Part shown: positions 1 through 14,087 of the stretch, in pieces
Position numbering within the stretch: the first letter of the stretch is position 1
How the letters are laid out: each line of letters starts with the position of its first letter
DNA from: Amoebophrya sp. A120
Taxonomy: Eukaryota > Protista > Dinoflagellata
NCBI GenBank assembly: GCA_905178155.1
Contig: CAJINV010000026.1
Span: 116,091-130,177, forward strand
Length of the DNA stretch: 14,087 bases
Direction: 5' to 3'
Program-made: the position numbers and the translations under genes
Notes under the pieces: model-generated
The model's input: only the letters and a program-made list of their open reading frames with translations
Told to the model about the DNA's origin: nothing
Database searches by the model: none

Positions 1-3000
1 CAAGATTGATCATAGCCCCCAGGATTGAAAAGAAAAAGCAGCACTTTTGCGAAAAAATTGCACCCCGAGCCGAAATCCCCAAAACCCCAGAAGCCAGATT
101 CCCAGGGTGATTCGTGACGCGCAAGAATTTTGGCTTCAGAAATTATCCGGCAAACCCAGAAAGCGTCTTTTTGGGCAAGATTGATCATAGCCTCCAGGAT
201 TCAAAAGAAAAAGTCGCGCTTTTGCGAAAAAATTGCAATCCCAGCCGAAAACCCCAAGACCCTCAGAAGCAAGATTCCCGGGGTGATTGGTGAAGCGCAA
301 GACTTTTGGCTTCAGAAGTTATTCTGCAAAAGCTAGAAAGCGGCTTTTTGGAAAAGATTGATCATAGCCTCCAGGATTGAAAAGAAAAAACAGCACTTTT
401 GCGAAAAAATTGCACCTCGAGCCGAAAACCCCGAGAACATCAGAGGCAAGAGTCCCGGGGTGATTCTTGGCGCGCAAGACTTTTGGCTTCAGAAATTTTC
501 CTGCAAAACCAGAAAGCGTCTTTTTGGGAAAGATTGATCATAGCCTCCACGATTGAAAAGAAAAAGTCACGCTTTTGCGGAAAATTGCAACCCCAGCCGA
601 AAACCCACAGAAACTAAAAAGCAAGATTCCCGGGGTGATTGGTGACGCGCAAGACTTTTGGCTTCTGAAATTTTCCTAAAAAGCCAGAAAACACGTCTTT
701 GAGAAAGATTGATCATAGCCTCCAGGATTGAAAAGAAAAAACGCCACTTTTGCAAAAAGAATTGCACCTCGAGCCGAAAACCCCAGAACCTCAGAAGCCA
801 GATTCCCGGGGTGATTGGTGACGCGCAAGACTTTTGGCTTCAGAAATTCTCCTAAAAAGCCAGAAAGCTCGTTTTTGAGCAAGATTGATTATAGCCTCCA
901 GGATTGAAAAGAAAAAGTCACACTTTTGCGGAAAATTGCAACCCCAGCCGAAAGCACACAGAAACTAAGAAGCCAGATTCCCGGGGTGATTCTTGGCACG
1001 CAACACTTTTGGCTTCAGAAATTCTCCTAAAAAGCCAAAAAGCTCGCTTTTCAGCAAGATTGATCATAGCCCCCAGGATTGAAAAGAAAAAGCAGCACTT
1101 TTGCGAAAAAATTGCACCCCGAGCCGAAATCCCCAAAACCCCAGAAGCCAGATTCCCAGGGTGATTCGTGACGCGCAAGAATTTTGGCTTCAGAAATTAT
1201 CCGGCAAACCCAGAAAGCGTCTTTTTGGGCAAGATTGATCATAGCCTCCAGGATTCAAAAGAAAAAGTCGCGCTTTTGCGAAAAAATTGCAATCCCAGCC
1301 GAAAACCCCAAGACCCTCAGAAGCAAGATTCCCGGGGTGATTGGTGAAGCGCAAGACTTTTGGCTTCAGAAGTTATTCTGCAAAAGCTAGAAAGCGGCTT
1401 TTTGGAAAAGATTGATCATAGCCTCCAGGATTGAAAAGAAAAAACAGCACTTTTGCGAAAAAATTGCACCTCGAGCCGAAAACCCCGAGAACATCAGAGG
1501 CAAGAGTCCCGGGGTGATTCTTGGCGCGCAAGACTTTTGGCTTCAGAAATTTTCCTGCAAAACCAGAAAGCGTCTTTTTGGGAAAGATTGATCATAGCCT
1601 CCACGATTGAAAAGAAAAAGTCACGCTTTTGCGGAAAATTGCAACCCCAGCCGAAAACCCACAGAAACTAAAAAGCAAGATTCCCGGGGTGATTGGTGAC
1701 GCGCAAGACTTTTGGCTTCTGAAATTTTCCTAAAAAGCCAGAAAACACGTCTTTGAGAAAGATTGATCATAGCCTCCAGGATTGAAAAGAAAAAACGCCA
1801 CTTTTGCAAAAAGAATTGCACCTCGAGCCGAAAACCCCAGAACCTCAGAAGCCAGATTCCCGGGGTGATTGGTGACGCGCAAGACTTTTGGCTTCAGAAA
1901 TTCTCCTAAAAAGCCAGAAAGCTCGTTTTTGAGCAAGATTGATTATAGCCTCCAGGATTGAAAAGAAAAAGTCACACTTTTGCGGAAAATTGCAACCCCA
2001 GCCGAAAGCACACAGAAACTAAGAAGCCAGATTCCCGGGGTGATTCTTGGCACGCAACACTTTTGGCTTCAGAAATTCTCCTAAAAAGCCAAAAAGCTCG
2101 CTTTTCAGCAAGATTGATCATAGCCCCCAGGATTGAAAAGAAAAAGCAGCACTTTTGCGAAAAAATTGCACCCCGAGCCGAAATCCCCAAAACCCCAGAA
2201 GCCAGATTCCCAGGGTGATTCGTGACGCGCAAGAATTTTGGCTTCAGAAATTATCCGGCAAACCCAGAAAGCGTCTTTTTGGGCAAGATTGATCATAGCC
2301 TCCAGGATTCAAAAGAAAAAGTCGCGCTTTTGCGAAAAAATTGCAATCCCAGCCGAAAACCCCAAGACCCTCAGAAGCAAGATTCCCGGGGTGATTGGTG
2401 AAGCGCAAGACTTTTGGCTTCAGAAGTTATTCTGCAAAAGCTAGAAAGCGGCTTTTTGGAAAAGATTGATCATAGCCTCCAGGATTGAAAAGAAAAAACA
2501 GCACTTTTGCGAAAAAATTGCACCTCGAGCCGAAAACCCCGAGAACATCAGAGGCAAGAGTCCCGGGGTGATTCTTGGCGCGCAAGACTTTTGGCTTCAG
2601 AAATTTTCCTGCAAAACCAGAAAGCGTCTTTTTGGGAAAGATTGATCATAGCCTCCACGATTGAAAAGAAAAAGTCACGCTTTTGCGGAAAATTGCAACC
2701 CCAGCCGAAAACCCACAGAAACTAAAAAGCAAGATTCCCGGGGTGATTGGTGACGCGCAAGACTTTTGGCTTCTGAAATTTTCCTAAAAAGCCAGAAAAC
2801 ACGTCTTTGAGAAAGATTGATCATAGCCTCCAGGATTGAAAAGAAAAAACGCCACTTTTGCAAAAAGAATTGCACCTCGAGCCGAAAACCCCAGAACCTC
2901 AGAAGCCAGATTCCCGGGGTGATTGGTGACGCGCAAGACTTTTGGCTTCAGAAATTCTCCTAAAAAGCCAGAAAGCTCGTTTTTGAGCAAGATTGATTAT

Positions 3001-5019
3001 AGCCTCCAGGATTGAAAAGAAAAAGTCACACTTTTGCGGAAAATTGCAACCCCAGCCGAAAGCACACAGAAACTAAGAAGCCAGATTCCCGGGGTGATTC
3101 TTGGCACGCAACACTTTTGGCTTCAGAAATTCTCCTAAAAAGCCAAAAAGCTCGCTTTTCAGCAAGATTGATCATAGCCCCCAGGATTGAAAAGAAAAAG
3201 CAGCACTTTTGCGAAAAAATTGCACCCCGAGCCGAAATCCCCAAAACCCCAGAAGCCAGATTCCCAGGGTGATTCGTGACGCGCAAGAATTTTGGCTTCA
3301 GAAATTATCCGGCAAACCCAGAAAGCGTCTTTTTGGGCAAGATTGATCATAGCCTCCAGGATTCAAAAGAAAAAGTCGCGCTTTTGCGAAAAAATTGCAA
3401 TCCCAGCCGAAAACCCCAAGACCCTCAGAAGCAAGATTCCCGGGGTGATTGGTGAAGCGCAAGACTTTTGGCTTCAGAAGTTATTCTGCAAAAGCTAGAA
3501 AGCGGCTTTTTGGAAAAGATTGATCATAGCCTCCAGGATTGAAAAGAAAAAACAGCACTTTTGCGAAAAAATTGCACCTCGAGCCGAAAACCCCGAGAAC
3601 ATCAGAGGCAAGAGTCCCGGGGTGATTCTTGGCGCGCAAGACTTTTGGCTTCAGAAATTTTCCTGCAAAACCAGAAAGCGTCTTTTTGGGAAAGATTGAT
3701 CATAGCCTCCACGATTGAAAAGAAAAAGTCACGCTTTTGCGGAAAATTGCAACCCCAGCCGAAAACCCACAGAAACTAAAAAGCAAGATTCCCGGGGTGA
3801 TTGGTGACGCGCAAGACTTTTGGCTTCTGAAATTTTCCTAAAAAGCCAGAAAACACGTCTTTGAGAAAGATTGATCATAGCCTCCAGGATTGAAAAGAAA
3901 AAACGCCACTTTTGCAAAAAGAATTGCACCTCGAGCCGAAAACCCCAGAACCTCAGAAGCCAGATTCCCGGGGTGATTGGTGACGCGCAAGACTTTTGGC
4001 TTCAGAAATTCTCCTAAAAAGCCAGAAAGCTCGTTTTTGAGCAAGATTGATTATAGCCTCCAGGATTGAAAAGAAAAAGTCACACTTTTGCGGAAAATTG
4101 CAACCCCAGCCGAAAGCACACAGAAACTAAGAAGCCAGATTCCCGGGGTGATTCTTGGCACGCAACACTTTTGGCTTCAGAAATTCTCCTAAAAAGCCAA
4201 AAAGCTCGCTTTTCAGCAAGATTGATCATAGCCCCCAGGATTGAAAAGAAAAAGCAGCACTTTTGCGAAAAAATTGCACCCCGAGCCGAAATCCCCAAAA
4301 CCCCAGAAGCCAGATTCCCAGGGTGATTCGTGACGCGCAAGAGTTTTGGCTTCAGAAATTATCCGGCAAACCCAGAAAGCGGCTTTTTGGGCAAGATTGA
4401 TCATAGCCTCCAGGATCCAAAAGAAAAAGTCGCGCTTTTGCGAAAAAATTGCAATCCCAGCCGAAAACCCCAAGACCCTCAGAAGCAAGATCGCCGGGGT
4501 GATTGGTGACGCGCAAGACTTTTGGCTTCAGAAATTTCCCTGCAAAGCCAGAAAACGGTTTTTTGGACAAGATTGATCATAGCCTCCAGGATTGAAAAGG
4601 AAAAGCAGCACTTTTGCGAAAAATTTGCACTTCGAGCCGAAAACCCAGAGAACATCAGAAGCAAGAGTTCCGGGGTGATTGTTGGCGCGCAAGACTTTTG
4701 GCTTCAGAAATTTTCCTGCAAAACCAGAAAACGTCTTTTTGGGCAAGATTGATCATAGTCTCCAGGATTGAAAAAAAAAACACCACTTTTGCGGAAAATT
4801 GCAACCCCAGCCGAAAGCCCGCAGAAACTAAAAAGCAAGATCCCGGGGCGATTGTTGGCGCGCGAGACTTTTCGCTTCAGAAATTCTGTTGTAAAGCCAG
4901 AAAACACCTTTTTGAGAAAGATTGATCATAGCCTGCAGGATTGAAAAGGAAAAACAGCACTTTTGCGAAAAAAATTGCAACCCTAGCCGAAAACCTACAG
5001 AAACTAAAAAGCCAGATTC
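1..5019. repeat. Tandem satellite, 173-177 bp monomer, about 28.6 monomers, 1054-bp six-monomer higher-order repeat (HOR)
   Basis: The anchor (C/A/G)AAGATTGAT(C/T)ATAG starts at 1, 176, 353, 529, 704, 880, 1055 and so on. HOR copies are 1-1054, 1055-2108, 2109-3162 and 3163-4216, and the ORF track repeats identically every 1054 bp. Diverged monomers start at 4217, 4392, 4568, 4744 and 4917; the last is truncated after GCCAGATTC at 5019. The array runs off the left edge of the window. Confidence 0.98.
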
Positions 5020-5634: not shown

Positions 5635-6823
5635 CTACGCGTCCTCCGATTCCGCGAGGGGAGACATCTCGTCCTCCCGCTGCTGGTCTTTCGCACGCAG
5701 GTCCCGGACCCACTGGCCGTTCGCATGCATCACCTTCCTCCGGTTTTCGACGCGTTTTTCGTCTATGCCACCCTCAGCCACGACAGCATCAAATTAGTTT
5801 GGCAAGGTCGACCCTTTTCGTCATTATAATCATGCCAATGCTTTTTAGGTGCATGTGGTCAGGAATAAGATTATCACAGCCGTCGTTTGTGCTTCTGAAG
5901 ATTTTGTGCAATCTACATTGCTGAAGTTGGAACTGTCCTGTCCGAACGAATCATATCACACTCTTCCAGACGTATCCTGAGCAAAAACGCCCCCGCCCCA
6001 TAGTGAAGATGGGGATTTTGCAACACAAGCCTACGAGTTTTGCCCGTCACGCATGCGAAGTTGCAGTCCGTATTGCAGTGTGGGTTAGCAAGAAGGGCAG
6101 CCGCATCACAAATCCCTCTGCTCATCCTCTTATTTGCATCGTTGCTTAGACTTACAAATGCCAAATAAACACGATAAAAATAGAAAGAGGTCTCTGCTCG
6201 TGGGGATGCGCATTACAAATCTTCCGTCAAGTAACAGCAAAGCGGCATGACAACTATGGGGTGGTGACGTTTTTGCTCAGGATAAAACGCGGTTTGTGGT
6301 CACTGTGGGTCCGCAAGAAGGCACGTGGTGTATCCGGGTTCTCGTGCTCCAGCTGCTCCATGCAAGACCGGCCTCCTTCCGGAGTCAGCGGAGTCTTGGC
6401 GACCGGGCTGATCGCGGTCGAATTGGACGTGTTCGCCAGGATGTTGAGTGTTGTGTTCACGATACCCCCGAAGGCTGAGGGGACGTCCACGACCTCCGAC
6501 ACGTGCAGCATGAACACCAACATAGCGACCAGGAGGACCACCAAGGCTAGAACCTCCTCGCAAGTTGTGCCATCTATACGAAATTTCCGTTTTTTTACAT
6601 CTACAGTCAAGTGCTATGGCTGTGTCACGTGAGTGTGACTGGTAGAAGTACTTTGCATCACATCATCTAAAAGCCGGTCTCTCAGCCAAGATAAGGCGGC
6701 ATTGTATTCCGTCTTCTTCCCTAAGAACAATCGCAAATATGTACCTTGTTGTGTCTTCGGGAGTCGAATCCCACCCGGTATCTTCGTGTTTTTCACCTTA
6801 CGCTGGCCGCCAACATTGCCCAC
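5635..6823 (-). pseudogene. Degraded protein-coding region of unknown product, possibly with a transmembrane segment, interrupted by one introner-like element
   Basis: ORFs 6614-6823 and 6254-6610 share a frame separated by one TAG (6614-6616). Removing element 5973-6284 plus one direct repeat continues the frame (...HSDHKPR|LEECDMIRSD...) to a TAG at 5913. Shifted frames then read FQLQQCRLHKIFRSTNDG...TKRVDLAKLI and DAVVAEGGIDEKRVENRRKVMHANG...ESEDA* (TAG 5635-5637). Hydrophobic run VLALVVLLVAMLVFML. Confidence 0.5.
5973..6284. mobile_element. Introner-like MITE, family C (312 bp)
   Basis: Perfect 17-bp terminal inverted repeat TATCCTGAGCAAAAACG / CGTTTTTGCTCAGGATA; direct repeats AGACG (5968-5972) and AAACG (6285-6289); colinear with 10730-11015. 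Confidence 0.9.
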
Positions 6824-6945
6824 TATTCAGTGCAAATATGTCTGGGTCTGGAGAATTGCGAAAATTGTCACGCTTGTCAGACATGGCTGTAGAGGTTCAG
6901 GTTGTCACGCATGTCCACGAACAGATCTTCTCTCTTGTCATATGA
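6824..6945. mobile_element. Truncated introner-like MITE, family A (left end only)
   Basis: TATTCAGTGCAAATATGTCTGGGTCTGGAG matches the family A terminus and starts exactly where ORF 6614-6823 begins. No right inverted repeat found, so the end coordinate is approximate. Confidence 0.7.
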
Positions 6946-7011
6946 AATTATCCTAGATTCCCACATGTTTTTTACTATATTTCAGCAGCTCCTCCACCAG
7001 TGGCGAAGCCG

Positions 7012-7091
7012 AAATAGAGACTCTCCATCCCAAATAGAGATTCTCCATCTGGGATAGAGAATCTCTATCTGGGATAGAGATTCTCTATCTG
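7012..7091. repeat. Four 20-bp tandem units with palindromic core GATAGAGA(A/T)TCTCTATC
   Basis: AAATAGAGACTCTCCATCCC, AAATAGAGATTCTCCATCTG, GGATAGAGAATCTCTATCTG, GGATAGAGATTCTCTATCTG. Confidence 0.9.
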
Positions 7092-7099
7092 TGATGCTA

Positions 7100-7386
7100 G
7101 GTTGCCAGCCAGCAACCCAGGAGCCCTGGCTACCAGCCTGGCAGCCCAGGCTTTGCTAGCCTGCCAGCCTGCTGGCAACCCAGGCTTTGTTAGCCTGCCA
7201 GCCTGCTGGCACCCAGGCTTTGCTAGCCTGCCAGCCTGGCACCCAGGCTTTGCTAGCCTGCCAGCCTGGCACCCCGGCTTTGCTAGCCTGCCAGCCTGGC
7301 GCCAAGGCTTCGCTAGCCTGCAAAGCCTGGGCGCTAGTCTGCCAGCCTCTCAACCAAGGCTTCGCTAGCCTGCAAAGCCTGGGCGC
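7100..7386. repeat. 30-33 bp minisatellite (GCTAGCCTGCCAGCCTGGCACCCAGGCTTT)
   Basis: Several consecutive units at about 7145-7320, plus a duplicated CCAAGGCTTCGCTAGCCTGCAAAGCCTGGGCGC at 7302 and 7354. Confidence 0.9.
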
Positions 7387-7559
7387 AGCCCGGCCGTCTA
7401 GCGGCAGCCCGCACGATTATCTTCGCGACACACGCCCACACCAGCTAGGTGTGGCGCGCGATAACGTAGGAGCGCGCGGCGCTCCTCGAAAATCTTTGAT
7501 GGACCCACTTAGCGGCCTCCCACCCACGGCGCCAGACACGGCACGCGAGAACACCCACG

Positions 7560-9340
7560 CGCCTGCCCGAGAGGTGGCCCGCGCGCGCAGCGCGCGAATT
7601 TTTTTTTGGCCCCCACAACGTCGGTCCGCCGGCCGCCACCTAGGTGCGGCGCGCAGAAAAAGGGAGCCAGCACGAAAGAAAAAGCCCAGGCGGGCGGAGC
7701 GCGAGGAGTTTTTTTTTTCATTCCCGCAAACAACGCAGGGGGGTCGCGGCGCACGAAAAGGAGCGCGCGCCGCCTGCTCGAAAAAACGGACACCAGGCGC
7801 GCAACGCAGGAGAATTTATCCCATTCCATCGATCCAACCACGACGCATGGCTGCAGCCCGCGCGAGAGAATTTAACCCATCACCTCCGCACTCCGCGCGC
7901 GCGACCTCAATGCGCGAGAACTTCTTGTCAATCCCAGCAAACGCGCCACCATGTGTGGCGCGCGCAAAGGAGTGCGCGGCCGCGCGCCCAGTAGAAGAAA
8001 AAGCGCGCGCGCAGCGCGCACAAAGTTTGTAGCCCGACCCCACATCGCCACCAAGCGCGAAGCGCGGGCGACGAAAATACGCGACCGACCAAGGAAAAAG
8101 AAGCGCAAAAACTTTTCGCATTCGATTCTGCACCCATCGCTACCAGGCGCGCCACGCGGGCGCCGGGGGTGCGCGGCCGCCCAGAGAGAAAAATTCGCGC
8201 GCGCGCAGCACGCGAAATTTTTTTCGAATTCGGCCCCATTCCCATCGCCTGCCAAAAGGGACGCGCGGCGCTCGGGCGGCCGGGGTGCGCGGCCGCTCTG
8301 AGAAACAAATTCGCGCGCGCACAGCGCGCGAAATTTTTTGGAAGTCGATCCCACACCGCCACAACACACGGCGCGCGGGCGATCGGAGTGCCCGGCCGCT
8401 CAAAGGAAAAAACTCGCGCGCGCGCAGCGCGCGAAAATTTTTTGAATTCGCTTCCACATGCACCACCACCAAGCGCGGCGCGCGAAGAGGGCGACGGGGG
8501 TGCGCGACCGCTCAAAGAAAAAAACTCGGGCGCGCGCAGCGCGCGAAAATTTTTTGAATTCGATTCCGCATGGCCACCCCGCGCGGCGCACGGGCAACGG
8601 AAGCGCGCGGCCGCTCAAAGAAAAGAATTGGCGCGCGCGCAGCGCACGAAATTTTTTGGAATTCGATCCCACACCGCCACCAAACGCGACGCACGGGCGG
8701 TGGGAGTGCCCGGCCGCTCAAAGAAAAAAACTCGCGCGCGCGCAGCGCGCAAAAATTTTTTGAATTCACTTCCACACGCACCGCAGCAAAGCGCGACGCA
8801 CGGGGGGGCCGGCGGCGGGGGTGCGCGGCCGCTTAGAGAAAAAGCCCCGCGCGCGCGCAGCGCCCGAAAATTTTTTGAATTCGATTCCGCATGGCCACCA
8901 AGCGCGACGCGCGGGCAACGGGACTGCGCGGCCGCTCAGAGAAACAAAATCGCGCGCGCGCAGCGCGCAAAAATTTTTTGAATTCGATTCCGCATGGCCA
9001 CAAAGCGCGGCGCGCGGGCATGCAACGAGAGCGCGCGGCCGCTCAGAGAAGCAAACTCGCGCGCGCGCAGCGCACGAAAATTTTTTGAATTCGATCCCGC
9101 ATCGCTACAAAGCGCGGCGCGCTGGCAGCGGCGCCCATATTTATTTTTCGATCCCAGCACGCCACAAGATTGATGTGGTGCGCGGGCCGGCGAAAAGAGG
9201 CGCCCGGCTGCTCACAAGAAAAAGCCCCCGCGACGCAGCGCGCACAAATTTTTTTCATTTCCGCCACGCCGCCAGATGCCGCGCATCGGCGAGCAAGAAC
9301 GTCTGGCCGCCCAAAAAGAAGCCCGCGCGCGCACAGTGTG
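7560..9340. repeat. Degenerate GC-rich tandem repeat with a ~102-116 bp unit (A-tract, (CG)n, T-tract, GAATTC)
   Basis: The anchor CGCGCGCGCAGCGCGCGAAAATTTTTTGAATTCG or a close variant recurs at about 8197, 8313, 8415, 8527, 8631, 8733, 8848, 8951 and 9058, with more diverged units on both sides. Confidence 0.88.
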
Positions 9341-10249
9341 CGCAATATTCTCTATTTCCCCTACGCCGGCCGCCAGGTCGGTGCGGAGTTATTCTTTCTT
9401 TCCCCGCAACTGACGGCGGGCAAATAAAGAATGAAAAAGCTGAACCCCCGGAGGCCGAAACATGCACAGGAACTTTTTTCCCCGTCCATGGGCACGGAAC
9501 AAAAAAAGCACTTTGAAAAAGTCAAGCGAGAGCGGCCTTTTGCGCCAGAGGAAGGTCAGCAGCTTTTCTTTGCGCCAGGCGAAGGCGAAGAGCAGACGCA
9601 ACCGAAGACAAAGCGGGAGCCGATAGATTCGACGCGGGAGATTCTCTATACGGAGAATCTCTATTGGGGCGTTGGAGAATTTCTATTGGATTTTTTTTTT
9701 ATAGACATTTTCTCTCATTTTGAAAAAAAAAATCTTCCCAGCCTGCGGGCTGTACTCGATATTTCCAATTTTCTTTATCAGCGCATTTCCGGTGATGGTC
9801 AGTCATAACAATGTGTCAGTCTGTTCGAGTTCATCGACTCGGTGGGAGTATCTCATATGTGTCTTCTTGCCTAAAATAAATACGGCATTACCTTTGGCGG
9901 TCTTTTGCAAAAAAAAAACTCAAAGTTGCTTCTTTTGATACGGACAAGTGGCTTCTTCTTCTTTAGGAAAGTTAAAGACTTATTTACCATCAGTGGCCTT
10001 CTACCCTGAAGTACTAGTTCCAGCGTGGATCTATCTTTATCTCAAAGTGTTCTTTTACAGACCTAATGTGCACCAGCGCAAAACCAAAATTGTGTCAAAG
10101 TGGAGGTGAACAAAATGTACATTCCTCTTCCTCTCATGATATGGAGAAGATCAAATAAAGTTGTGTCGGAGCATCATTCCAGCATCTCTGTATCATCTGC
10201 CAACTCGTAGGCAAGCCCGTCGCGCAGCTTATTGTGAAACTTCCCCGTC

Positions 10250-10397
10250 TATGAACTGCAAAAGTTAAAGTATCGCACTCGTATAAATGCATTTCGTCCG
10301 CCTGAAAAATAAAATTTGTACTGCGGATTTACGATAAGAAAAAAATTTGCAATGCAAGACTTGCATGTATACGAGTGCCATACTTTTGCAGTGGATA
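10250..10397. mobile_element. Introner-like MITE IE11, family B (148 bp)
   Basis: Ends TATGAACTGCAAAAGT...CACTCGTATA and TATACGAGTGCCATACTTTTGCAGTGGATA; perfect direct repeat CCGTC/CCGTC. Confidence 0.9.
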
Positions 10398-10406
10398 CCG
10401 TCCCGC

Positions 10407-13400
10407 CTACCAACTCTCCACGCCGGCGGCACCTGGCGCGGCCTCGTCCTATCAAACGTAAAAATGTCTGGGTCTGGAAGGTTGCCAGGTTTGTCATGCA
10501 TATTTCACATGACTCAGGATGTCTGTAATGCATGATCTGGCATCACAAATTTTTAGAGGCCTTCGCCTTCCTGATGCCTCTTGCGCATGACAAATACCCT
10601 CCCTGCGTAGCAAAAACTGGGCTCCTATTGCTGGCCATGCAATACTTTTTTAGAGTCCAAAGTTGGCATCACAAGTTCCAACCTTCCAGACCCAATCATG
10701 TTTACATTTGATACGTCTGCGTCGCTGTTTCTCCTGAGGAAGAACGTCCCCACCCCATAGTCAAGATGGGGATTTTGCAACACAAACCTGCAAATTTTCC
10801 GACTCATGCATTATACGTTGCAGTCCGTAGCGTAATGCAGGCTATAGCAAGGGCAAACGCATCAGAAATCCATCTGCTTATCCTAGCTGCAGCATTACAA
10901 ATGCCAAAACACGACTGAAAGTTCCTCTCATGAAGATGCCCATTAGATTACAAATGTTCCTGGCATTGCAAATCTCCATGACAACTCTGGGGTGGGGACG
11001 TTTTTACAAATGATATCGCTGCTTCCATCTTCTTCTCCCTCTTGGACGAAGGACGACATGTACTTCTTGGTTTTGCTTTTCGTTATCAAATGCAAACATG
11101 TCTTGGTCTGCAAACTTGTAATGCAGGAAAGGGAAAAATAGTGAGCTCAGTGTAAAAATGCGCTGGCCAGCATGACAAGTTTCTCCGTTTTTTCTGAGTT
11201 GCGTACTACTCTGCATGAGAAACTGCGTTTTTGCATGACAAACAAGACGAGCTCTTCGCGGCAACGCAATACAGAGCTCAGAGTCATGCCAGACTATCAT
11301 GACAAGTCATATTCCAGACCGAGACATATTTGCACTTGGTAGTCGCTTTCTTCTCCTTCTTCGGATCTTCTTTTCCTTCCATGAGCGCGGCTTCGTATCA
11401 AAAGCAAAGCTCCCCCCTCCCCATATCAAAGGGGAGCTTCATCTGATGCTGGATTTGCGTACACGAATCGGGTCTGTCTTGCAGCAGAGGACTGCAGGCC
11501 CATGCCAAGCCTAAGCAGGAGGGTTTTGACGTAGGCGCGTAGCATGGCAAATGTGTACTCTGTAGGCCCCATAGCATCACAAACCGCCTGCATACTGCGG
11601 CGGAGTCACTGGACTGGCCTTCTTGCAATACAGAGACTATTTGTGTCCACAAATCAGCATCACAAATTTGCAGAAGTCTCCCTTTTGGCATGGGGAGGGG
11701 GGATTTTTCCTCAAGATACTTCGTTCTTTTTCTCTTCTGCCTTCGCCTTCGCAGCTTTCTCCTTTTCCCTGGCAATATGAACTGCAAAAGTATCGTACTC
11801 GTATAAATGCAATACAAATTTCCTCAGCATGAGAAAGGAAATTTGTAATGCGGATTGACGCTTGTAATGAGTATTAACCTTAAGAAAAGGATTTGTAATG
11901 CATGATTGCAATACGAGTATCAGATACTTTTGCACAGGATAGGCCACCAGTTTCGCCGATTTTCCATGCGCGCCGCCGATCTATCAAATGCAAAAATGTC
12001 TGGGTCTGGAAAAATGCAAGATTTGTGATACAGGTTTTCCACGACCCATGAGGTCTGGAATGCGAGACCCAGCATGATAGATTCTTGGAGGTCTCTATCA
12101 TGCCTTTCCTGCATGAGAAACTCCCTCCCAACTTGGTCAAAAGCGGACAGCTTTCCGTACTCACGCAACACAGATTTTTGCATCATTCAGATTTAGCATG
12201 ACAAGTTCTAATCTTCCAGACCCAGACATTTTTACATTTGATACGATCTCGTCGGGTCCCACGTACTTCCCGGTCCACGCGTCGTAGACCATCTCCTTGC
12301 ATCACACTGAAAAACGCCCCCACGACCCCCAAAGTTGCAATAATTTGTGATGCGACGTTTCCAAATGAAAACTTTTCGTCATGCATGAAAGGACTACGAA
12401 TCTTTCTGATGCAGAGTCTAGGCGTATATAAGTAGCTGCATCGCTTGCATGACAAGCGCCACTCCTCCTAGGATCTTTTGCAATACAAATTTTTGCTATT
12501 TACGATTGAAAATCTGTGATGCTGATAGAGGCAAGAGGGCGAATGTTTCATTTGGAGATATTTGCAATACAAATGCGCCCAAGTTCTGGGGAGGGGGGAT
12601 TTTTCCTTTTGATACCTGGCCCTTCAGATTCTTGTCCGGGGTGTTGTCGGTCATTATGCCGTATCCTGTGCAAAAGTATCTGATACTCGTTTTCTTGCAA
12701 TCATGCATTACAAATCTTTTTCTCGAGGTGCGTCAGCATCACAAATCTTATTTCTCATGCTGGGGACGTTTGTAATGCATTTATACGAGTACAATACTTT
12801 TGCAGTTCATATGCCGATAATCCGCTTCTTGTTCCGCGTAAAAGCCTATCGACTGTAAAAATGTGTGGGTCTGGAAGAATTCATGTTTGTCATGCTTGTC
12901 TGGCATGACTCTTAAATCTGTCATGCACGTTACCCAAGAGCTCCGCTTTGCTGTGTTGCAGAAGCGCAGTTTGTCATGCAGAGTAGGCAACTACACCTAG
13001 GAGCTCAGAAACTTGTCATGCTGAGCCAGCATCTGTAACCTCATCATGAGACGCCACCCAGCGTCACAAGTTTCCAGACCCAGACATAATTTTTACTTTT
13101 GATAAAGCCAGGGTGGTATACTCCAGCCCGTAGTCCGGGTACACGTATGGATTGCAAAAATGTCGGGGTCTGGAAGATTGCAACTTGTCCTGCTAATTCC
13201 GAATAATGCAAAAATCAGCGTTGCATGAGTGCCAAAAGCTGTCCACTTTCGACCAAGTTAGTAGTAGTAGTAGTACCATTTAACTCCTGGCGGGTGGGCG
13301 TTAGAACAGATTTAGCCTCTGCCGATACCTGGGCGTTAGAACAGATTTAGCCTCTGCCGATACCCCTAGGTGGAGACCCGGCCCACGTCCTAACTACCAC

Positions 13401-13755
13401 CCGGCTGCACCTGCAAAACCGCTATCGATTGCTTACGCATGGCTGCCAAGTTGAAAGGAAGTTTCTCATGCAGGATAGGCATGATAAAAGTCTCACAGAA
13501 TCTGTCATGCCATGTCCTACATACCAGACCTCATGGGTCATGGAAAACCGTCATGACAAGTCTGGCACTCTTCCAGACCCAGACATTTTTGCAGTTGATA
13601 ACGCGTCCTGGTGATTGAAGAGACCTTGCATGTCCTTCTCTTTCGTGTGCTTCAGCATCGTGGCAAGATTGAAGCCCCACTTCTTCGCCTGCTCGTAGTT
13701 GAAAGCATAGTCCAGTGACAGCGCATGCGGCAGCGGGTACCCAGTAAAGTGCAGC
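10407..13755 (-). CDS. Multi-exon gene of unknown function, probably the 3' part, with a Lys/Glu-rich C-terminal region; split by 10 introner-like elements
   Basis: Segments 13755-13601, 13145-13105, 12846-12812, 12661-12615, 12299-12244, 11981-11942, 11775-11719, 11395-11342, 11083-11016, 10729-10714 and 10449-10407, joined by dropping one direct-repeat copy each, give LHFTGYPLPHALSLDYAFNYEQAKKWGFNLATMLKHTKEKDMQGLFNHQDVYPDYGLEYTTLAFTRNKKRIIGIMTDNTPDKNLKGQEMVYDAWTGKYVGPDEIGGAHGKSAKLVAREKEKAAKAKAEEKKNEAALMEGKEDPKKEKKATSKTKKYMSSFVQEGEEDGSSDADEAAPGAAGVESW*. A pyrimidine tract and CAG|G acceptor precede 13755. The true start and the last exon are uncertain. Confidence 0.85.
10450..10713. mobile_element. 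Introner-like MITE IE10, family A (264 bp)
   Basis: Ends TATCAAACGTAAAAATGTCTGGGTCTGGAAGGTTG and CAACCTTCCAGACCCAATCATGTTTACATTTGATA; direct repeat CGTCC/CGTCT. Confidence 0.92.
10730..11015. mobile_element. Introner-like MITE IE9, family C (286 bp)
   Basis: Ends TCTCCTGAGGAAGAACGTCCCCACCCCA and TGGGGTGGGGACGTTTTTACAAATGATA; flanks TCGCTGTT/TCGCTGCT (8 bp); similar along its length to 5973-6284. Confidence 0.85.
11084..11341. mobile_element. Introner-like MITE IE8, family A (258 bp)
   Basis: Ends TATCAAATGCAAACATGTCTTGGTCTG and CAGACCGAGACATATTTGCACTTGGTA; degenerate direct repeat TTCGT/GTCGC. Confidence 0.85.
11396..11718. mobile_element. Introner-like MITE IE7, family C (323 bp)
   Basis: Ends TATCAAAAGCAAAGCTCCCCCTCCCCAT and ATGGGGAGGGGGGATTTTTCCTCAAGATA; perfect direct repeat CTTCG/CTTCG. 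Confidence 0.9.
11776..11941. mobile_element. Introner-like MITE IE6, family B (166 bp)
   Basis: Ends TATGAACTGCAAAAGTATCGTACTCGTAT and ATACGAGTATCAGATACTTTTGCACAGGATA; direct repeat GGCAA/GGCCA. Confidence 0.9.
11982..12243. mobile_element. Introner-like MITE IE5, family A (262 bp)
   Basis: Ends TATCAAATGCAAAAATGTCTGGGTCTGGAA and TTCCAGACCCAGACATTTTTACATTTGATA (29/30 match); perfect direct repeat CGATC/CGATC. Confidence 0.95.
12300..12614. mobile_element. Introner-like MITE IE4, family C (315 bp)
   Basis: Ends CATCACACTGAAAAACGCCCCC and GGGGGGATTTTTCCTTTTGATA; direct repeat CCTTG/CCTGG; right end resembles IE7. Confidence 0.85.
12662..12811. mobile_element. Introner-like MITE IE3, family B (150 bp), inverted relative to IE6
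   Basis: Ends TATCCTGTGCAAAAGTATCTGATACTCGT and ATACGAGTACAATACTTTTGCAGTTCATA; perfect direct repeat TGCCG/TGCCG. Confidence 0.92.
12847..13104. mobile_element. Introner-like MITE IE2, family A (258 bp)
   Basis: Ends TATCGACTGTAAAAATGTGTGGGTCTGGAA and TTCCAGACCCAGACATAATTTTTACTTTTGATA; perfect direct repeat AAGCC/AAGCC. Confidence 0.92.
13146..13600. mobile_element. Introner-like MITE IE1, family A, inverted relative to IE5, with a nested insertion
   Basis: Ends TATGGATTGCAAAAATGTCGGGGTCTGGAAG and CTTCCAGACCCAGACATTTTTGCAGTTGATA; direct repeat ACACG/ACGCG; colinear with the reverse complement of 11982-12243 apart from 13260-13452. Confidence 0.92.
13260..13445 (-). mobile_element. Short non-LTR retroposon-like insertion (186 bp) with an (ACT)n tail and 7-bp target-site duplication
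   Basis: CCAAGTT at 13253-13259 and 13446-13452, whereas the uninterrupted paralogue IE5 has one copy; (AGT)5 at 13260-13274; exact internal 35-bp tandem duplication 13295-13329/13330-13364. Confidence 0.72.
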
Positions 13756-14087
13756 CTGATGAAGATGAGAAACAAGAGCATAATAATCAGTATAATATAC
13801 AAGTCGGCAGTTTTTGTCGCCACAGAGCCTCGATCAACGAGAATCGGGAAACCGAGAAAAAGGGAGAGGCTTGCAACCTAGGAAGCCCCGGCCACCTCTC
13901 TGGGCCCCGACGCGATAGGCTATGGGGCCGTAGGCCGGGGCCCCTAGGTGGGCGAGTGAGGCCAAGCAGGCCGAGGCCCCGGGGGCGAAGGAAGGAAGCG
14001 CCAGCGGCCAGGCGCGAAGGGAGGCCATTTGAGAAAGCTGGGGCCCAAATGCGAGAAAGCCAAGGCCGAAACAAAGCGACCGCGACA

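Follow-up and report, generated by a model that had tools for sequence, protein, structure and literature searches.

Introduction

The closest described relatives of the locus analyzed here are the introners of the dinoflagellate Amoebophrya sp. A120, of which Farhat et al. (2021; PMC7789003) report 29,850, with ends reading TAT, seven nucleotides (nt) and AAA, and with hairpins. According to that report these elements average about 240 nt, fall into many families, have border repeats of 3–5 nt (5 base pairs in the legend of Fig. S19) and are spliced at variable positions; U1 is reported as not detected in A120, and GT-AC, GT-CG and GT-AA are given among its nine commonest intron types. Gozashti et al. 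(2025; PMC12130899) describe introners of A120 as terminal inverted repeat (TIR) transposons, with tens of introns in a gene. A paper resolving how such introns are removed was not found in the literature searched, most subscription journals lying outside it. Here we examine a 14,087-nt stretch of A120 DNA (contig CAJINV010000026.1, positions 116,091 to 130,177 of the forward strand; hereafter the window), in which 11 inverted-repeat elements, numbered E1 to E11 by rising position, interrupt a gene on the minus strand. We conclude with good confidence that the interrupted region is the 3′ end of this gene, that the elements are copies of miniature inverted-repeat transposons (MITEs), and that each is removed from the precursor messenger RNA together with five further bases (element+5).

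The locus resembles the A120 introners of PMC7789003 in its TAT + 7 + AAA ends, in inverted ends that form a hairpin, in border repeats, in its many families, in its non-GT-AG sites and in its repetition at unrelated places in the genome; as reported there, too, the gene is one of no known function and the elements are absent from a likely messenger RNA (the X4 contig described below, RNA by guess). In contrast to the repeats and splice positions given in that report, the duplication here is strictly 5 nt and free in sequence, and removal is consistent with one length, element+5. The inverted arms are at least 30 nt long with mismatches, compared with the 8–20 nt motifs published. One family in PMC12130899 combines TIRs with reading frames of Copia/Gypsy-like type, whereas no element found here has a long frame (the longest, 972 nt, holds 86 codons). 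Euglenid nonconventional introns and the MITE introns of Fritillaria borealis, as reviewed in PMC11282704, share the inverted ends, the border duplications and the lack of GT-AG. However, a consensus of purine/pyrimidine borders with CAG/CTG is given for euglenids and AG-AC or AG-AT for Fritillaria, while here a free 5-nt duplication supplies the border letters. Ginger/TDD DNA transposons (PMC2836005) likewise carry TIRs, and TDD-4 and TDD-5 produce 5-base-pair duplications, but the termini described for this group are TGTNR and its integrase is Gypsy-like, unlike the TAT termini and the absence of any visible transposase here. Because published counts of such introns reach tens of thousands in a genome and tens in a gene, the gene is a dense new example of an already published intron class and not a new kind. 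Its value is as a compact test bed: within 3.4 kb it brings together about three element families, with 11 copies in all and both orientations present, with exons as small as 11 net bases, one element in an untranslated tail, three decayed ends and six mismatched duplications.

Results and discussion

Eleven hairpin elements with five-base duplications

A reading of the sequence alone had proposed that 11 inverted-repeat elements fill most of this span and are separated by GC-rich pieces of 16–68 nt, and both proposals held. Between 10250 and 13600, elements of 148–455 nt make up 2,885 of 3,351 nt, and the 16–68 nt spacers have a G + C content of 47–77%, compared with 34–51% in the elements. 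The terminal triplet (TAT...ATA) is kept at 19 of the 22 element ends, with an A-run next to it, and has decayed at one end each of E3 (TCT), E4 (TAC) and E8 (CAT). The 5-nt direct repeats that flank the elements agree at 46 of 55 letters, whereas 37,007 re-pairings gave 14.3 on average and never more than 26; from E1 to E11 the matches are 5, 4, 2, 3, 5, 4, 5, 4, 5, 5 and 4 of five letters, so that E2, E3, E4, E6, E8 and E11 carry mismatched duplications. Folding into long hairpins is predicted for all 11 elements (z = −4.0 to −12.3, 25 dinucleotide shuffles each). Furthermore, a profile detector trained on loci other than the window recovered nine of them, missing E3 and E8 with their decayed ends, and found none in 30 of 30 shuffles.

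Judged by their arms, the elements belong to about three families, and this one gene contains them in both orientations: E7 and E11, in opposite orientation, are 82% alike over 155 nt, as are E6 and E9 at 88% over 80 nt. A search of Rfam gave no matches. E11 owes its larger size to two features at 13255–13364, a run of (GTA)n and a 35-nt tandem duplication that is perfect.

An element-free contig of the predicted length

Twelve sequencing runs were listed for the window, none of the holders of its sequence being on record as RNA, and four were compared: X1, which is DNA-like and of unrecorded kind, X4, whose status as RNA is a guess, and X10 and X11, which are raw RNA reads. Record 10 of X4 (2,762 nt, depth 12.3) matches the window in two parts, both with 0 differences: its positions 1–332 correspond to 9913–10244 and its positions 749–904 to 13601–13756. 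The 416 nt between these parts equal the 471 non-element nt of the span minus 11 × 5, and the whole stretch measures 904 nt, where the removal of element+2 throughout would yield 937 nt. The removed length includes E1, in spite of its likely position in the 3′ untranslated region, and removal therefore appears to be independent of the reading frame. At the E11 junction the exon retains at least three letters of the upstream repeat copy, since the match from 13601 is perfect while the two copies differ at their third letter. The size that had been predicted from sequence for a product from 13700 to 10420, about 0.5 kb, was also right, with 494 nt by the sum of the spacers versus 3,281 nt in the genome. 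For E3 an 8-nt duplication was considered and is disfavored, as the 904-nt total fits five bases unless another junction compensates.

Agreement between the X4 contig and the window stops at 13756, where a pyrimidine tract and CAG follow and record 7 of X1 reads through, and the other end of the contig lies about 500 nt behind the stop codon, as expected of a spliced messenger RNA. The contig is likely the messenger RNA of this gene, shortened by the elements and by five bases for each. In X1, records 2 and 3 run across borders between element and exon (record 5 does so at one border) at a depth of 27–36, similar to the single-copy flank at about 31; over the window, X1 depth runs to thousands on the elements and to 32–45 on the flank, and it is 31.9 at 9994–10140 versus 37.6 upstream of the end of the X4 contig.

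These contigs bear on whether the elements leave the RNA or the DNA. Excision from DNA, either programmed or somatic as in ciliates or by way of a processed retrocopy, would make the X4 contig a piece of element-free DNA. The precise excision of a transposon also takes out the element and one duplication copy, and the kind of X4 is a guess for a run that includes intron sequence. However, what lies past the canonical acceptor is missing from this contig too, and it has an end like that of a messenger RNA. The X1 contigs keep the element borders at single-copy depth, although contigs drop rare variants and minor DNA forms would not show in them, and PMC7789003 reports the A120 introners as introns supported by RNA sequencing. 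Excision from DNA is therefore very improbable, and we hold it highly probable that removal acts on RNA, as the sequence-only reading had preferred.

Related loci fit the same rule

An end-motif search of metagenome contigs found 150 stretches (of an estimated 520 or so), of which 146 were analyzed; the 80 that are listed share one assembly prefix. A blastn comparison of the window with these 146 loci placed 1,850 matching pieces on the elements and next to none on the spacers. From the related loci we took 259 distinct elements, chosen blind to their flanks and with a median length of 262 nt. The 5-nt duplication is perfect in 203 and has one mismatch in 36 (239 of 259 together), while duplications of any other length from 3 to 10 nt are perfect in at most five, which is the level of chance. 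No base preference was seen within the 5-nt duplications of these loci. Of 241 cases, 56% were open over 200 nt to either side when element+2, +5 or +8 was removed, compared with 27–31% for other lengths.

The gene for RPB1 in one related locus, L067, separates these three lengths. Five of its six detected elements can be removed without a gap against the nearest homologue only as element+5, and both +2 and +8 require a one-residue gap at all five of these exonic elements. The sixth lies within a GT-AG intron, one gene thus containing this kind of element alongside several canonical introns. The earlier proposal that these are non-canonical introners, removed as the element plus one repeat copy, is supported by the X4 arithmetic, by the X1 contigs in which the elements are retained, by RPB1 and by the published A120 motif. 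The RPB1 of the related loci is of an early-branching dinoflagellate type: it is sister to one protein at 72–86% identity and branches between apicomplexans and core dinoflagellates, in a tree of 31 rows with plants and fungi as outgroup from which rows aligned over 250 residues or fewer, including Perkinsus, were left out; no row was a named Amoebophrya. The window itself offered no conserved gene for such a placement.

An autonomous element was not found among these loci, the longest element, of 972 nt, carrying only a frame of 86 codons, and a second long candidate proved to be a chance pairing around nested elements. The end motif was found in 0 viral contigs. Within the L067 RPB1 gene the 972-nt element occupies 6024–6995, with 22 of 22 end letters complementary, and a 240-nt element at 7540–7779 is nested in a canonical GT-AG intron.

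Reading frame and gene product

Removal of element+5 leaves a minus-strand frame that is open from 13754 over 10 junctions to a TAG at 10409–10407, and E1 lies 9 nt behind this stop codon. The sequence-only reading had reported such a stop-free frame and had taken it to imply selection on the spliced product. The frame is open as described, but openness is weak evidence for coding because 39,366 of the 59,049 phase combinations are free of stops and a second frame is open as well; by itself it does not imply selection. More discriminating is a coding model for which the related loci supplied 97 unspliced frames as training set. Under it the reading with five bases removed at every junction ranks 5 of 59,049 phase combinations, its score is reached by 8 of 5,000 random removals, and the frame scores +28.6 versus −36.6 and −77.2. 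The G + C fraction by codon position in the joined frame is 0.57/0.38/0.74, and the predicted product has a tail rich in lysine and glutamate. For the largest exon, of 52 residues, no homologue was found: database searches gave 0 hits, Pfam gave no family, and an Atlas search gave only short clusters with low recognition.

Such results could also be expected of a dead gene or a non-coding region that has gathered MITEs and is open by chance, given that two thirds of the phase combinations lack a stop, the 52-residue exon lacks a homologue and X10 and X11 lack reads on the exons. Against this stand the exact predicted length of the element-free contig, the rank of the all-five reading and the insertion of the same elements into RPB1, an essential gene, in the related loci, and we regard a dead or non-coding region as scarcely credible.

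Splice signals and the cut register

The elements share no splice dinucleotide. In any register of element+5, GT-AG is available at no more than one of the 11 sites in the window and at no more than three of 244 oriented elements in the related loci. Eight of the 11 window sites have no option for a GT, GC or GA donor with an AG acceptor at element+5, and so lack the canonical U2 donor and AG acceptor at the length observed. E8 alone shows CAG|GT...AG at element+5 and may represent a conversion to an ordinary GT-AG intron.

Ordinary spliceosomal introns might nevertheless borrow GT, GC or GA and AG from the duplications or the element ends, so that one codon is gained or lost on balance, as in G|TAT...ATA|G at element+2. 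In-frame GT-AG options do exist at element+2 for E1, E2, E4 and E7 and at +5 for E8, and +2 and +8 preserve reading frames equally to +5. This explanation is very improbable, since removal of +2 throughout overshoots the observed length of the X4 stretch, E3 and E11 have no in-frame GT/GC/GA-AG option within 8 nt, the RPB1 alignment needs a gap at every exonic element under +2 or +8, and duplications without base preference argue against borrowed signals.

For the position of the two cuts within the duplications, only the statement that at least three upstream letters are kept is supported by the present data. The likeliest register, to which we give an even chance, is four letters of the upstream copy and one of the downstream copy; it yields introns with NT at the 5′ end, for example GT-AC, GT-CG and GT-AA, as in the published A120 table. 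Mismatches in the duplications, distributed 16/15/25 over the codon positions, are compatible with one copy being free to change and do not fix the cut. Because six of the duplications in this gene are mismatched, a single complementary DNA read would fix it.

A proposed mechanism

Insertion of the elements would be carried out by a transposase or integrase acting in trans, with a 5-base stagger and at any sequence; an enzyme of the DDE type is suggested because the duplication is 5 nt long and free in sequence. Once transcribed, an element would fold into a hairpin in the precursor RNA and so bring its two duplications together, and the RNA would then be cut twice, each time within a duplication and at a set number of bases from the paired TAT/ATA ends. 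It seems probable that cutting at fixed distances leaves the exon with the letters of one duplication, which restores the coding sequence for any target and in either orientation. With border letters and orientation both unconserved, only the symmetric end or its structure would be left to serve as the signal, and guidance by the hairpin is likely because no register gives GT-AG at more than one of the 11 sites. If E3, E4 and E8 are spliced, a perfect TAT/ATA stem would not be needed, as their ends are decayed or unpaired.

As for the catalyst, we lean slightly toward a major spliceosome in modified form, with the hairpin taking the place of both U1 and acceptor recognition, the alternative being a separate nuclease and ligase. 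In the latter case a structure-specific endonuclease and a ligase, possibly derived from a transposase, would act on the RNA without the spliceosome, as has been proposed for euglenids. Donor, acceptor and orientation are all unconserved here and the insertion is reversed exactly, as such a route would allow, and euglenid hairpin introns are described as being released as circles (PMC11282704). On the other hand, 83 of 89 spliceosomal proteins and most small nuclear RNAs are reported in PMC7789003, canonical introns occur in the same genes, and the transposon introns of Fritillaria reportedly use a changed U2 spliceosome (PMC11282704). Taken together, these points make the spliceosome-independent route possible and rather unlikely.

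A more tentative idea still is that of an RNA-level machine that would depend neither on U1 nor on the border sequence, would recognize the paired TAT/ATA hairpin in either orientation and, by a fixed 5-base stagger, would undo the insertion by the transposase exactly. If true, any exonic insertion would be made harmless by a spliceosome-independent 'RNA excisase', possibly derived from a transposase or co-evolved with one. Whatever the catalyst, the data sharpen the published picture to one rule, the duplication of five bases of free sequence and the removal of element+5, which is directly usable by gene finders and constrains any mechanism.

Several observations weigh against the removal of MITE copies from the RNA as element+5 or against particular steps of it. 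The evidence from X4 comes from a single contig, in a single run that is RNA by guess, and it fixes the 55-nt total rather than each junction; X4 also contains intron and element sequence, and so DNA or unspliced RNA is present in it. The raw RNA reads of X10 and X11 have depth in five and three of 30 bins, respectively, on elements only; their lack of depth on the exons is uninformative for expression either way. For a strict stem rule, the decayed terminal triplets of E3, E4 and E8 are a difficulty, as are the outer 12 positions of E3, which are predicted to be unpaired. With respect to the register, the direction of the mismatches (GC versus AT copy) gave no consistent signal over the 244 oriented elements, and aligner preference may have shaped the A120 table of splice types, which weakens the argument for four plus one letters.

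Features of the locus and the rest of the window

Features of the interrupted gene, from its 5′ to its 3′ side (minus strand; net lengths are after loss of five bases)
Feature	Position	Strand	Evidence and remarks
Upstream exons of the 13601..13756 exon			Outside the matched part of the X4 contig
Likely canonical intron, 3′ end with pyrimidine-rich tract and CAG	13757..13780	-	Sequence; X4 contig exits, X1 contig continues
Coding exon after canonical acceptor, 156 nt	13601..13756	-	X4 record 10, 0 differences; 52-residue translation P0001
E11, 455 nt	13146..13600	.	Family GTCTGGGTCTGGAA; repeat ACACG/ACGCG; 35-nt tandem duplication inside
Spacer/micro-exon, 41 nt (36 net)	13105..13145	-	
E10, 258 nt	12847..13104	.	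Repeat AAGCC/AAGCC
Micro-exon, 35 nt (30 net)	12812..12846	-	
E9, 150 nt, short family	12662..12811	.	Repeat TGCCG/TGCCG; orientation opposite to E6
Micro-exon, 47 nt (42 net)	12615..12661	-	
E8, 315 nt, one decayed end (CAT)	12300..12614	.	Repeat CCTTG/CCTGG; sole GT-AG option at element+5
Micro-exon, 56 nt (51 net)	12244..12299	-	
E7, 262 nt	11982..12243	.	Ends 29/30 complementary; repeat CGATC/CGATC; orientation opposite to E11
Micro-exon, 40 nt (35 net)	11942..11981	-	
E6, 166 nt, short family	11776..11941	.	Repeat GGCAA/GGCCA
Micro-exon, 57 nt (52 net)	11719..11775	-	X1 record 3 covers micro-exon and element borders
E5, 323 nt, C-run family	11396..11718	.	Repeat CTTCG/CTTCG
Micro-exon, 54 nt (49 net)	11342..11395	-	Both borders bridged by X1 record 2
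E4, 258 nt, one decayed end (TAC)	11084..11341	.	Repeat TTCGT/GTCGC
Micro-exon, 68 nt (63 net)	11016..11083	-	
E3, 286 nt, C-run family, one decayed end (TCT)	10730..11015	.	5-nt repeat 2/5; 8-nt repeat 7/8 in AGC run
Smallest micro-exon, 16 nt (11 net)	10714..10729	-	
E2, 264 nt	10450..10713	.	Repeat CGTCC/CGTCT
Last coding exon	10398..10449	-	TAG at 10409-10407
E1, 148 nt, short family	10250..10397	.	Repeat CCGTC/CCGTC; in likely 3′ untranslated region
Likely 3′ untranslated region	9913..10249	-	X4 record 10 matches 9913-10244, 0 differences; contig end at 9913

Element sequence also appears in the runs in other contexts. In X10, 188 RNA reads match the window only at 12157–12243, an 87-nt stretch at the end of E7, and to either side of it they pass into sequence from other places; X4 contains this loose end as well. 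The X10 reads suggest the transcript of another locus that keeps half an element with a single inverted end, and such retention would follow from a need for both ends in removal. In contigs of X1, two element ends are joined over 19–40 unrelated letters, which suggests that other loci, too, have micro-exons between elements.

Elsewhere in the window, a twelfth element of the same kind at 5973–6284 (repeat AGACG/AAACG) is 78% like E3 over 113 nt and lies inside an apparent second minus-strand gene at about 5640–6610, where the frame at 6254–6610 had no Pfam match. A lone element end of the GTCTGGGTCTGG family at 6824–6870, with no partner before the tandem repeats that begin at 7014, is possibly a truncated element. 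The first part of the window, 2–5019, is a satellite of 175-nt units in 28.6 copies; six units make up a higher-order repeat of 1,054 nt, with 98–100% likeness between its copies. Further tandem arrays, with units of 20, 30, 52 and 103 nt, occupy 7014–9690, and a motif resembling ATAGAGAATCTCTAT at 7014–7095 reappears near 9640–9690, bracketing the GC-rich arrays.

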